64,000 bases of DNA from Escherichia coli (GTDB taxonomy: Bacteria; Pseudomonadota; Gammaproteobacteria; Enterobacterales; Enterobacteriaceae), in NCBI RefSeq assembly GCF_002854065.1, contig NZ_CP024147.1; one strand, written 5' to 3'. The position numbers were made by a program, and so were the translations under genes. The notes beneath the pieces are model-generated. The model was not told the origin of the DNA. It saw only the letters and a program-made list of their open reading frames with translations, and did no database searches. The stretch's first letter is position 1. Each line of letters opens with the position of its first letter. This document shows, piece after piece, positions 1 to 61,711 of this stretch.

Positions 1-36
1 GTTGGTAAAAAAGACCAGCCCGGACAAAATCATTGA
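1..36 (+). CDS. acrZ: 3' end of acrZ (AcrAB-TolC accessory small membrane protein), partial
   Basis: Frame 1 translates to VGKKDQPGQNH then TGA at 34..36; matches recalled AcrZ C-terminus; lies upstream of modA as in K-12. Confidence 0.7.
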   Translation, partial: VGKKDQPGQNH

Positions 37-55353: not shown

Positions 55354-56001
<648 letters not shown>

Positions 56002-57043: not shown

Positions 57044-57395
57044 CCTTTCTCCCACAAATATCTAGACTTAAGTAAAGCGTGGAGTGTACTGGATATACCC
57101 AATGCTGGTTGAGCATTTGTTGAAAAAATTTTCCCCCGTTTTGACTAAAATGCGCCAGGATTGATGGAATCATTAGTCTGGTGATTAGGAATAATCTGGA
57201 TGAATGACAGGGAAAACATGCGTAATACTTACGCAGTTCTCTGAAAAAGTGATTTAAATTTAGATGGATAGCGGTGTATGGAAACGTTCTGTTACATGAA
57301 ATGGCCCGTTAGACATCACAAATCGCGAAGAGTTTCCCATTAATTTTTGATATATTTAAAACTTAGGACTTATTTGAATCACATTTGAGGTGGTT

Positions 57396-57960: not shown

Positions 57961-59543
57961 TAAGGTTTCGGGTCGAAAATATCGGTTCCGAGATGGTTAT
58001 AATCCACCTTCTGTAACTGGAAGTTGGTGATGTATATTGGCCCGGCTTTCTTCTCAGATATAAACGGGTATTTGATGTTAATTTCCTTCGCTTTAATTCC
58101 CGTCCACTGCGAGAAAAAGCCTAAGAAGTCATTGGCTGAGCGGCGGGCTTTAATCACCCGATGCGCTTTATCGTCGCTGGAAATGACCATAAAAGGCACC
58201 TGGAAATTTTGCTGATACTTATCATCATGGGCAAGGTATTGCACGTCTTTGCCGCGCTCTTTAAAGGCCAGACCGTGGTCAGAAAAGTAAACCAGCGAGA
58301 AGCTGCTGCCGCTGTTGCGTAACTGATCGTACAGCTTGCGCAGTAAATCGTCCGTTTGCGTCATAGTATAGAGATAGCACGACGTTTCTTTCGATTGTAC
58401 AAAGGTTTCATATTTGCCTTGTGTCCGGTCGCAGGCCTGCGGATGCGAGCCCATCAGATGCAGAACAATCAGCTGCGGTTGCGAGTGCTCTTGCGCCAGC
58501 ACTTGAGCGGTCATATCCAGTAACGCTTCGTCTTTCGTGTTTTTATCTGCTTCAAAATTACCTTCTTTCAGGAAGTACACTTCATCTGCTCGTTTGGCGA
58601 TGCTGGCGATAGCGGTATCGTATTCGCCGATTTGACCCTGGTTGGAAAACCACCAGGTCTGGAAGCCCGCGCGATTTGCCAGGGTGACAAAGTTATCCTG
58701 AAACTGTGGCTTGCCATCGACAACGCGATTGAGCGTTAAGCCAAGCGATTTCTGCGTGGAGCCACTGGCGGCAATGTAGTCAGCAAATATCAAACCGTTA
58801 ACGCTGCTGGCAAACGGGGTATTGTCCCAGTGACCGCCAAAGGCACCGAGGGCATCGCGACGCGCGCTTTCACCGATCACCACCACATAGGTCTGATACT
58901 TCGGCTTAACGGCAGTGACCGTCCAGGTATCTTTCATTCCGGAAAGTTTTGCCATCCGTTCTTGCTCTTCAATCACCTCGTTATTATTGACGATGACATC
59001 CTTAGCAAAACGAAATACCGGATAGCCAGTATCTTTCAGTTTAAATACGCCACCCCAGGCCAGGTTTTGCACGGGAGCAACAAAAAATGTCGCCACACTG
59101 AATACCAGACACAGGCTGTCGAAGGTATTCCAGCGCGCTTTTTCATTCTCTTTTTTTCGCCTGATTGCTATTACGCCGAGCGCAAAAATAAATAAGCCGA
59201 CCAGGTAGCTGTACCACGGAAAAATCGTCAGGATTTCGGTCGACTCTTCCATATTGGTGGAGTGCAATGCCAGCAATGTATTGAAATTAGGCGCGCCGTA
59301 GGCCTGAGCAAAAGGGAAATAACAAGCCGCCACCAGCGAACTGACACCGACCAGAACTTTTTGTACGCGAGGCAATGTTCGCCATAGCAAAAGCAAAATA
59401 GCCGTAAACGCAGCGGTGTAGAGCAAACTGAAGGGGTAACCTAAGCCGAGGTTAATTAATAGCGACTGTAAAAAGTAGAACGCAGTCCACGGGCTAAATA
59501 CCCGGCTACGGGTAACAAGCGATTCTTTGAGGGTTAAATTCAT
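57960..59543 (-). CDS. opgE: Phosphoethanolamine transferase for osmoregulated periplasmic glucans
   Basis: 527 aa; N-terminal TM region plus sulfatase-like domain. Confidence 0.9.
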   Translation of the reverse strand: MNLTLKESLVTRSRVFSPWTAFYFLQSLLINLGLGYPFSLLYTAAFTAILLLLWRTLPRVQKVLVGVSSLVAACYFPFAQAYGAPNFNTLLALHSTNMEESTEILTIFPWYSYLVGLFIFALGVIAIRRKKENEKARWNTFDSLCLVFSVATFFVAPVQNLAWGGVFKLKDTGYPVFRFAKDVIVNNNEVIEEQERMAKLSGMKDTWTVTAVKPKYQTYVVVIGESARRDALGAFGGHWDNTPFASSVNGLIFADYIAASGSTQKSLGLTLNRVVDGKPQFQDNFVTLANRAGFQTWWFSNQGQIGEYDTAIASIAKRADEVYFLKEGNFEADKNTKDEALLDMTAQVLAQEHSQPQLIVLHLMGSHPQACDRTQGKYETFVQSKETSCYLYTMTQTDDLLRKLYDQLRNSGSSFSLVYFSDHGLAFKERGKDVQYLAHDDKYQQNFQVPFMVISSDDKAHRVIKARRSANDFLGFFSQWTGIKAKEINIKYPFISEKKAGPIYITNFQLQKVDYNHLGTDIFDPKP

Positions 59544-59814
59544 ATGCCACTATCGTAACAAACGCCATGTGCTTACCCTGGCGTCAAGGGTCAATACCTG
59601 CAAGAGTGCGTGAAGAGGGGAAAGGGGTCCGCATCCGCGAGCCGCAATATACGCAGGGCTGCAAGAAGATAGAGCGAGCCGCCGTTCAGGTCAACTACTG
59701 ACGAACAAATCTTTTGCGAAGGGGATTGCAAATCCGACAAAAAGTGGGGTTTTTCAGACCAAAACGCGTTATGCCTGCATGAAAGCAGGAGGGAAGCGGC
59801 GTACCGCGACGCCG

Positions 59815-59943
59815 CTATTTATCGGAAGGTTTATCTTGCTGCGGTTTGTTGTTGACCATATCGCACAACATAGAGAGCAGCATTAACCGTACTTTAAAGG
59901 GAGAATGACTAAACACGCGCATACACCTCTTGAACTCATTCAT
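59815..59943 (-). CDS. mntS: Small protein MntS (42 aa)
   Basis: Minus-strand translation MNEFKRCMRVFSHSPFKVRLMLLSMLCDMVNNKPQQDKPSDK*; below the ORF-track size cutoff. Confidence 0.8.
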   Translation of the reverse strand: MNEFKRCMRVFSHSPFKVRLMLLSMLCDMVNNKPQQDKPSDK

Positions 59944-60002
59944 AAGACCTCCTGACTTGCTAATCCCGTCGATCCTTGAGGGATGATTGCATTACATACA
60001 GA

Positions 60003-60037
60003 TATAGCACAGGCTATATTATTTAGCTATTGCTAAA
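60003..60037. promoter_or_regulatory. Two MntR operator palindromes in mntS promoter
   Basis: ATATAGCACAGGCTATAT and TTTAGCTATTGCTAAA upstream of mntS. Confidence 0.65.
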
Positions 60038-60128
60038 ACGTTAATTTTTTGTACCTTCGCAACTCTGGTTTACAATGTGCGCACGAAATGAGAACGCTAT
60101 GTATGCGTCACCATAATGAGGAAGCACA

Positions 60129-60596
60129 ATGAGTCGTCGCGCAGGTACGCCAACAGCAAAAAAAGTGACGCAGTTAGTGAACGTGGAAGAGCACGTTGAA
60201 GGGTTCCGCCAGGTCAGAGAGGCGCATCGGCGCGAGCTTATTGATGATTACGTTGAGCTGATTTCTGACTTGATCAGGGAAGTGGGGGAAGCTCGTCAGG
60301 TAGACATGGCTGCTCGTTTGGGAGTTTCGCAACCGACGGTGGCTAAAATGCTTAAGCGACTGGCAACTATGGGGCTGATTGAAATGATCCCCTGGCGTGG
60401 CGTGTTTTTAACGGCAGAAGGAGAGAAGCTGGCGCAGGAAAGCCGCGAGCGACATCAGATAGTCGAAAATTTCTTGTTGGTGTTGGGCGTCAGTCCGGAA
60501 ATCGCCCGTCGCGACGCGGAAGGCATGGAGCACCATGTTAGTGAAGAGACGCTCGACGCTTTTCGTTTGTTTACCCAGAAACACGGTGCCAAATGA
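60129..60596 (+). CDS. mntR: Mn(II)-responsive transcriptional regulator (DtxR family)
   Basis: 155 aa; recognised MntR. Confidence 0.93.
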
Positions 60597-61711
60597 GCCT
60601 GCCTTTTTTACGCACGCTGCAAGGCGATCGTTTTTTTCAGTTATTAATTCTTGTTGGTATCGGATTAAGTTTTTTCGTTCCCTTTGCACCGAAATCCTGG
60701 CCTGCTGCTATCGACTGGCACACCATCATCACCTTAAGCGGCCTGATGCTGCTGACCAAAGGTGTGGAGTTAAGCGGTTATTTTGATGTGCTGGGGCGCA
60801 AAATGGTGCGCCGCTTTGCTACGGAGCGTCGGCTGGCGATGTTTATGGTGCTGGCGGCGGCGCTGCTTTCTACCTTTCTGACCAACGATGTCGCGCTGTT
60901 TATTGTTGTTCCGCTGACTATCACGCTAAAAAGACTGTGTGAGATCCCGGTTAATCGGCTGATTATTTTTGAGGCGCTGGCAGTCAATGCTGGTTCGCTA
61001 CTGACGCCAATTGGCAACCCGCAAAATATTCTTATCTGGGGACGTTCTGGTCTTTCGTTTGCCGGATTTATTGCCCAAATGGCACCGCTGGCTGGTGCAA
61101 TGATGCTGACACTCCTGCTGTTGTGCTGGTGTTGTTTCCCTGGAAAGGCGCTGCAATACCATACGGGGGTGCAAACGCCGGAGTGGAAACCGCGGCTGGT
61201 GTGGAGTTGTCTGGGACTGTATATCGTCTTTCTGACGGCGCTGGAGTTAAAACAAGAGCTGTGGGGACTGGTGATTGTGGCGGTGGGCTTTGCGCTGCTG
61301 GCACGTCGCGTGGTGTTGAGTGTGGACTGGACGCTGCTGCTGGTGTTTATGGCGATGTTTATCGACGTCCATTTACTGACCCAGCTTCCAGCGTTGCAAG
61401 GCGTGTTGGGTAACGTGAGTCATTTATCTGAACCCGGATTATGGTTAACGGCAATCGGTTTATCGCAGGTGATCAGTAACGTGCCGAGTACCATATTGTT
61501 GCTGAACTATGTGCCGCCGTCTTTATTACTGGCATGGGCGGTAAACGTAGGTGGCTTTGGGTTATTACCCGGATCGCTGGCAAATTTGATTGCGCTACGT
61601 ATGGCGAACGATCGCCGCATCTGGTGGCGTTTCCATCTCTATTCAATACCGATGCTGTTGTGGGCGGCGCTGGTGGGATATGTTTTGTTGGTTATGATCC
61701 CGGCCTGGTAA
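60593..61711 (+). CDS. ybiR: Putative anion permease (ArsB/NhaD superfamily)
   Basis: 372 aa polytopic membrane protein; overlaps mntR stop. Confidence 0.88.

Follow-up and report, generated by a model that had tools for sequence, protein, structure and literature searches.

The window, by which we mean the whole 64,000-nt stretch of Escherichia coli DNA that was analysed, carries the small gene mntS on the minus strand, divergent from the neighbouring mntR and ybiR across an mntS-to-mntR spacer of 185 bp. The coding features of the locus are as follows:

59815..59943, minus strand: mntS coding sequence from the ORF list, ATG start, 42 aa and a TAG stop
59953..59948, minus strand: Shine-Dalgarno sequence AGGAGG, 4 nt 5′ of the mntS ATG, read from the sequence
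60129..60596, plus strand: mntR, manganese-dependent DtxR-family regulator (NCBIfam NF008273, 269 bits against a cut-off of 153)
60593..61711, plus strand: ybiR, putative anion transporter (Pfam CitMHS), overlapping the mntR stop by 4 nt

In the six-frame ORF list of the window, the mntS ORF translates to MNEFKRCMRVFSHSPFKVRLMLLSMLCDMVNNKPQQDKPSDK. Its DNA is base for base that of b4705 of K-12, which the MG1655 annotation places at 852869..852997 on the minus strand, within the ncRNA rybA (b4416). The protein scored 96 bits against the equivalog model NCBIfam NF033226 (small_MntS; cut-off 36), with residues 1-39 lying on profile positions 1-40/41, and a Pfam search yielded no model for MntS. 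The first-pass annotation, made from the sequence alone, had read this 42-codon minus-strand ORF as MntS, and the identity with b4705 and the NF033226 match bear this out. Comparison with annotated mntS genes, which could have placed the gene elsewhere or on the other strand, agreed as well: in a strain with a 100% identical 441-bp segment, RefSeq mntS occupies the window equivalent of 59815..59943 on the same strand. Among 5426 complete E. coli genomes, 5421 matched a query of these 441 bp, with mntS and mntR annotated beneath the match.

The similarity to K-12 extends over the whole locus, since 1201 bp around mntS are 99.25% identical without a gap, and the neighbours opgE, mntR, ybiR and ldtB, the strand and the 5′UTR are the same in both. 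K-12 coordinates were transferred to the window as L004 position + 54445, without gaps. The mntR product contains the Pfam domains Fe_dep_repress and Fe_dep_repr_C, and mntR and ybiR both lie on the plus strand, so that the divergence of mntS from an mntR-ybiR unit, also proposed from the raw sequence, was found as described. The locus is the characterised, already known E. coli mntS with its two MntR palindromes.

mntS is maintained as a coding sequence across Enterobacteriaceae

An MntR scan with one genome per species provided 80 Enterobacteriaceae mntR loci, of which 77 carry an intact mntS ORF running from ATG to stop over 41-44 codons and divergent from mntR. The three exceptions are two contigs that end before mntS and one replacement, in Citrobacter sp. 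R56. The ATG, the stop codon and the Shine-Dalgarno sequence are retained in 78/78 sequences, and CAGGAGG is conserved in the alignment of the mntS 5′UTRs. Divergence against the window sequence has a median pS of 0.60 and pN of 0.105, and the variable columns number 27, 21 and 42 at codon positions 1, 2 and 3, respectively. The mntS ORF is thus under purifying selection as a protein, with a pN/pS of ~0.18. The consensus of 67 distinct proteins (41-44 aa) reads MNEFKRC..VFsHSPFkVRLmLlnMLCDm with an invariant SPF, and the window protein shows the features of the family, namely ~42 residues, a conserved N-terminal polar segment, the SPF motif and a central hydrophobic helix, as described by Wright et al. 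(bioRxiv 10.1101/2023.06.02.543501). It has also been reported that silent changes predominate in mntS, that frameshift alleles at F11 and F16 lose the phenotype, and that tagged MntS protein is detected during manganese limitation (PMC4361602).

The mntS promoter and the RybA transcript

The K-12 annotation and the alignment of the upstream region place the following features on the mntS transcript, the two promoter hexamers being putative assignments:

59671..60010, minus strand: RybA/mntS transcript, K-12 ncRNA b4416 (852725..853064) mapped gap-free, with its 5′ end at 60010
60044..60039, minus strand: putative mntS -35 hexamer TTAACG, present in 67 of 74 distinct sequences
60023..60018, minus strand: putative mntS -10 hexamer, AATAAT in the window and TATAAT in K-12
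59965..59983, minus strand: 5′UTR stem-loop with a 6-bp stem and the loop A(A/C)GGATC
59796..59815, minus strand: GC-rich, terminator-like hairpin GCGGCGT-CGCGGT-ACGCCGC, whose first base is also the final one of the mntS stop codon

Shimada 2014 gives the mntS promoter as TTAACG-16-TATAAT (PMC3946193), whereas the spacer between the same hexamers was counted here as 15 nt. Across genera the -10 hexamer reads TA..AT. A different -10 hexamer, TAATAT at 60021..60016 with a 17-nt spacer, was considered and dropped because the alignment with K-12 reveals a consensus hexamer, TATAAT, lying two bases further upstream; in addition, TAATAT is freely variable in its first base from genus to genus. A generic promoter scan did not call the mntS promoter, because its hexamers fall below the 9-of-12 rule.

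Northern blots have revealed RybA species from 205 to ~400 nt with a common 5′ end (PMC4361602). A transcript ending right after the hairpin behind the stop codon is predicted to be ~221 nt long, against the reported 205 nt. Of 76 distinct downstream sequences, 73 retain this hairpin, and in 55 of these 73 it is followed by 6 or more T within 10 nt. Most genera have a T-run at this place, whereas in Escherichia the tract reads TTCCCTCC or TTCACTCC; the window carries the degraded form TTCCCTCC, with 4 T in the 10 nt after the hairpin, and a terminator scan called none at this hairpin. The degraded Escherichia T-tract may explain the long read-through RybA species.

Within the 5′UTR, the stem-loop was specified by hand and evaluated in 35 species: 90% of the cells are paired, compensatory changes occur in 4 of 6 pairs, and the observed covariation score was reached by 0 of 500 shuffles. 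RNAalifold gave no convincing consensus fold for the 35 mntS 5′UTRs (-1.4 kcal/mol), and a search of 59000..61000 against Rfam had no match at E<=1. RybA is thus present as an annotated transcript, and a curated RNA model with conserved structure is absent from Rfam at this threshold; covariation is confined to the short 5′UTR hairpin.

Two further elements were seen on either side of the transcript. A conserved promoter-like sequence, TTGACC-17-TATCTT, which the promoter scan did pick up, lies upstream of opgE at 59666..59694; like mntS it is on the minus strand, and it contains the annotated RybA 3′ end (59671). An imperfect inverted repeat, TTTGCAATCCCCTTCGCAAA, likewise conserved, stands before this sequence. 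Between the mntS -35 hexamer and mntR, a 12-mer at 60059..60070, TGGTTTACAATG (CATTGTAAACCA on the mntS strand), is nearly invariant in Enterobacteriaceae.

Two tandem palindromes with an MntR-type core lie over the mntS promoter

Two palindromes had been pointed out ahead of mntS. Both are present in the sequence, the first starting at 60002 and not, as had been given, at 60003:

60002..60019: operator P1, ATATAGC-ACAG-GCTATAT, perfect 7-bp arms and a 4-nt spacer
60022..60037: operator P2, TTTAGC-TATT-GCTAAA, perfect 6-bp arms and a 4-nt spacer

Their centres are 19 bp apart. The 5′ end of K-12 rybA maps to the centre of P1 (60010), and relative to this start P1 covers -9..+9 and P2 covers -27..-12. 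With the hexamers placed as above, the two palindromes would lie over the core promoter, a position compatible with repression.

A perfect palindrome by itself is not rare in the window, in which 27 such sequences with 6-bp arms and a 4-nt spacer were counted against ~16 expected. P1 and P2 are, however, the sole pair of them separated by no more than 40 bp. Three copies of the core TAGCNNNNGCTA were counted in the 64 kb against 0.52 expected, and 1 of 100 shuffles reached this number. Two of the three TAGC-N4-GCTA cores belong to P1 and P2, and the third lies upstream of dps. The latter, TAGCACCGGCTA at 55908..55919, is embedded in ACATAGCCGGTGCTATAC on the minus strand, ~56 nt before the dps ATG (55857, minus strand). 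Repression of dps by manganese-loaded MntR is reported by Yamamoto 2011, as cited in PMC5553809, and in the curated data of PMC4207228, so that all three cores of the window stand upstream of genes reported as MntR-repressed. In K-12, a motif search detected TAGC-N4-GCTA upstream of mntH (one site, within AAACATAGCAAAGGCTATGTTT) and of mntP (two sites), and P1 and P2 both carry the half-site (A/T)TAGC and the 4-nt spacer of the mntH upstream site.

A dyad weight matrix was built solely from the sites upstream of mntH, mntP and dps, 4 sites with 8 half-sites in all. Over the ~64,000 positions of the window, P1 ranked 2 and P2 ranked 24, and the only position that scored above P1 was the dps site, which is itself in the training set. 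In view of these ranks, P1 is a strong and P2 a moderate match. Another match, at window position 1890 (score 18), was rejected as a chance hit with a single good half-site, apparently in the coding sequence of the mod operon. A full-text literature search for the literal operator sequences retrieved unrelated papers only.

The conservation of the intergenic region was determined from 74 distinct Enterobacteriaceae mntS-mntR spacers. By far the most conserved stretch extends from the -35 hexamer through P2 and P1 to about +22. In P1, the mean majority fraction is 0.99 with 14 of 18 columns invariant. In P2, it is 0.93 with 8 of 16 columns invariant, and these are exactly the eight core positions TAGC/GCTA, which do not vary while the spacer and the flanks do. 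In the rest of the upstream spacer, it is 0.75 with 13 of 84 columns invariant. Moreover, 73 of the 74 sequences have two intact cores at a distance of exactly 19 bp, and the remaining one carries a single core mismatch. P1 and P2 are conserved beyond the background, although this is partly confounded with the overlapping -10 elements of two promoters. The proposal that the palindromes fit the MntR operator architecture therefore holds, both in the core common to the sites upstream of mntH, mntP and dps and in the conservation of both sites.

Outside the operators, a block at 59989..60001 (+10..+22 of the mntS 5′UTR) has a mean of 0.96 with 9 of 13 columns invariant. Two loci of the sample are rearranged in this region. 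In Citrobacter sp. R56 (L015), mntS is absent and similarity ends inside the first palindrome (...TAATATAGC), beyond which there is unrelated AT-rich DNA with a Cys- and His-rich ORF; the locus seems to have undergone a replacement or an insertion that broke within the operator. In Leclercia adecarboxylata (L040), a GC-rich, repeat-like insertion of ~250 bp lies between the mntS -35 hexamer and the operators with the -10 hexamer, ~90-350 nt 5′ of mntR; the mntS ORF and P1 remain intact there, and the core of P2 carries one mismatch.

Proposed regulation of mntS and competing explanations

Upon manganese treatment, MntR represses mntS (Waters 2011, as curated in PMC4207228), and with a PmntS-egfp fusion this repression by manganese was observed only when mntR was present (PMC9806134). 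MntS binds and inhibits the exporter MntP and self-associates in the presence of manganese (bioRxiv 10.1101/2023.06.02.543501, later in Mol Microbiol 2024). The binding and inhibition of MntP, and likewise the manganese sensitivity upon overproduction, were published for K-12 MntS, whose sequence is identical to that of the window (PMC4361602; bioRxiv 10.1101/2023.06.02.543501). To these reports the present analysis adds, as direct observations, the gene identity, the purifying selection, the match to the core, the position over the promoter and the conservation of the sites. The best explanation, in which we place high confidence, is that the region holds E. coli mntS (rybA) under a promoter controlled by MntR.

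The arrangement of the sites suggests the following course of events. At high cytoplasmic Mn2+, Mn-loaded MntR dimers would bind directly to the two adjacent inverted repeats P1 and P2. P1 would cover the transcription start together with the end of the -10 hexamer, and P2 would fill the spacer between the -35 and -10 hexamers, reaching the first bases of the latter, so that occupancy of both may exclude RNA polymerase from the mntS promoter. Neighbouring MntR dimers, 19 bp from centre to centre, may cooperate. When Mn2+ drops, MntR would be released, the RybA/mntS mRNA would be made, and the 42-aa MntS would be translated from the strong ribosome-binding site. MntS bound to MntP would then inhibit export, and scarce manganese would therefore be retained. 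The exact occupancy of P1 and P2 by MntR and the occlusion of the promoter are deduced from the sequence.

Two other explanations of the locus were weighed against this one. The 42-codon ORF could be incidental to a non-coding small RNA, given that K-12 annotates the ncRNA rybA across the same stretch, that one study (Gerstle 2012, as cited in PMC11878033 and PMC4361602) reports an Hfq-independent repression of aroF and aroL by RybA during peroxide stress, and that the 5′UTR hairpin of mntS shows compensatory changes. A purely RNA role would, however, not account for a pN/pS of ~0.18, for third codon positions being the most variable, or for a start, a stop and a Shine-Dalgarno sequence in all 78 sequences. 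Moreover, frameshift alleles lose function and the protein has been detected (PMC4361602), whereas the locus has no Rfam family at E<=1 and RNAalifold finds no strong consensus in the 5′ region. The selection pattern and the frameshift data largely refute an RNA-only role of RybA, and we give it hardly any credence. A dual role, with MntS as the protein and RybA as a regulatory RNA, is conceivable.

The other explanation concerns the palindromes, which could have arisen by chance in an AT-rich promoter or could be the sites of a regulator other than MntR. That the window holds 27 perfect palindromes with 6-bp arms, that P2 owes its perfect symmetry to a rare SNP, and that the conservation of the palindromes overlaps that of the -10 elements would all fit such an origin. 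Against this explanation stand the core shared with the sites upstream of mntH, mntP and dps, the second rank of P1 in the window under a matrix from which P1 was left out, the eight invariant core positions of P2 and the fixed 19-bp spacing, the adjoining mntR, and the mntR dependence of the repression (PMC9806134). Because of this shared core, matrix rank, fixed spacing, adjoining mntR and mntR-dependent repression, both versions of this explanation are very improbable, and we retain the MntR-controlled mntS promoter as the reading of the locus.

Possible shared control of mntR-ybiR

P1 and P2 could in addition act on a compact bidirectional promoter and repress mntR-ybiR (autoregulation) besides mntS, which would extend the main explanation rather than replace it. 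The promoter scan predicts a divergent promoter on the other strand:

59991..60020, plus strand: predicted mntR-ybiR promoter ATTACA-18-TATATT, overlapping P1
59991..59996, plus strand: predicted mntR -35 hexamer ATTACA
60015..60020, plus strand: predicted mntR -10 hexamer TATATT, with a start that would fall inside P2

If this promoter is real, the overlap of its -10 hexamer with P1 and of its start with P2 would mean that the two operators also confer autoregulation on mntR. The promoter scan and Shimada 2014 agree on the mntR hexamers, and the mntS-mntR spacer is listed there in the table of RpoD-holoenzyme constitutive promoters (PMC3946193). Furthermore, ATTACA belongs to the block 59989..60001, whose conservation almost equals that of the operators even though the block lies outside them. 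This block could instead serve as the initial transcribed region of mntS. In addition, the implied mntR leader would be ~100 nt long, promoter-like matches nearer to mntR exist in the scan (e.g. ATGAGA-18-CATAAT), the mntR start is a predicted one, and our literature search found no report of mntR autoregulation. Shared control of mntR-ybiR is a tentative extension that we consider less likely than not. A Fur box and a further, degenerate MntR site were also considered as reasons for the conserved block and set aside by eye in favour of the predicted mntR -35 hexamer.

A rare allele in the promoter and operator at 60023

At position 60023 of the plus strand, the window has T where K-12 has A, and it is because of this rare allele that P2 is a perfect palindrome. 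In K-12 and nearly all E. coli, P2 reads TATAGC-TATT-GCTAAA, in which 5 of 6 arm positions are complementary. On the mntS strand, K-12, the E. coli species representative, two cryptic Escherichia lineages and E. albertii have GCTATA, and the window has GCTAAA. Among 5327 complete E. coli genomes with a match, just two, those of strains 100416 and CUWW06, have the exact 61-mer of the window around 60023; the last 25 kb of the window are ~100% identical to these two strains.

With 60023 T, the putative mntS -10 hexamer reads AATAAT instead of TATAAT and the P2 half-site TTAGC instead of ATAGC, and the matrix score of P2 falls from 9.3 to 7.0. By weakening the -10 hexamer and altering the half-site, the allele may lower or re-tune mntS expression and the manganese set-point. 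The combined proposal, that Mn-MntR shuts both mntS and mntR-ybiR via P1 and P2 and that 60023 T lowers or re-tunes mntS and the manganese set-point in the 100416/CUWW06 lineage, is speculative, and we would sooner bet against it than for it.

Comparison with known manganese-responsive systems

The closest counterpart is K-12 mntS/rybA with the divergent mntR-ybiR, which has the same coding DNA, strand and neighbours and differs in the promoter and operators at 60023 alone. The repeat upstream of mntH (AAACATAGC-AAAG-GCTATGTTT), which we take to be the MntR box described by Patzer and Hantke (2001), has the same inverted-repeat design and TAGC-N4-GCTA core as the mntS sites. It is, however, a single site with 9-bp arms, whereas mntS has two shorter sites, with 7- and 6-bp arms, 19 bp apart. 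Upstream of mntP, sites with the same core are paired (TAGCCAAAGCTA and TAGCTTAGGCTA), as at mntS, although their centres are 40 bp apart instead of 19 bp and they lie ~370-420 bp before the mntP start codon; at mntP, MntR activates and does not repress (PMC4207228; PMC8632737). For Bacillus subtilis, PMC11275975 and PMC8632737 describe MntR acting at mneP through several neighbouring operators with a cooperative response, and this system activates an exporter gene, unlike the repression of mntS. Against the Bacillus-type model, E. coli MntR scored 87 bits (cut-off 138), as a distant relative.

MntS itself is reported to be homologous to the 40-45-residue signal peptides of a SitA subclade, with a shared PF motif, and an origin of MntS from such a signal peptide has been proposed; SitA is the periplasmic subunit of the manganese importer SitABCD, from which MntS would have inherited its linkage to mntR (Wright et al., bioRxiv 10.1101/2023.06.02.543501). 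In contrast to SitA, MntS is free-standing, has lost both the mature SitA domain and the AXA cleavage motif, and is less hydrophobic (bioRxiv 10.1101/2023.06.02.543501). The alignment made here recovers the invariant SPF of MntS and the N-terminal MNEFKRC.

The gain for biology is small, as the literature already covers mntS, its regulation by MntR and the effect of MntS on MntP, and RefSeq has the gene at these coordinates. As a positive control, the reading of the raw sequence recovered a true 42-aa gene and its operators beneath a 60-aa ORF cut-off. What remains of some value is the allele at 60023, which is rare and affects promoter and operator alike, and a possible joint control of mntR.

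Other small genes of the window

The first-pass annotation had also pointed out that further small proteins of fewer than 60 aa could be missed in the window, and the 60-aa cut-off does hide at least two more annotated micro-ORFs: ybiE (19 aa, 44592..44651, plus strand) and yliM (21 aa, 57278..57343, plus strand), whose DNA is identical to that of K-12. The DNA of the small RNA zbiJ (44524..44620, minus strand) is also identical to that of K-12, and positions 1..36 of the window are the last 36 nt of acrZ (49 aa). The segment ~37257..40063 (rhlE to ybiA) is not collinear with K-12, measuring ~2.8 kb in the window against ~0.74 kb.
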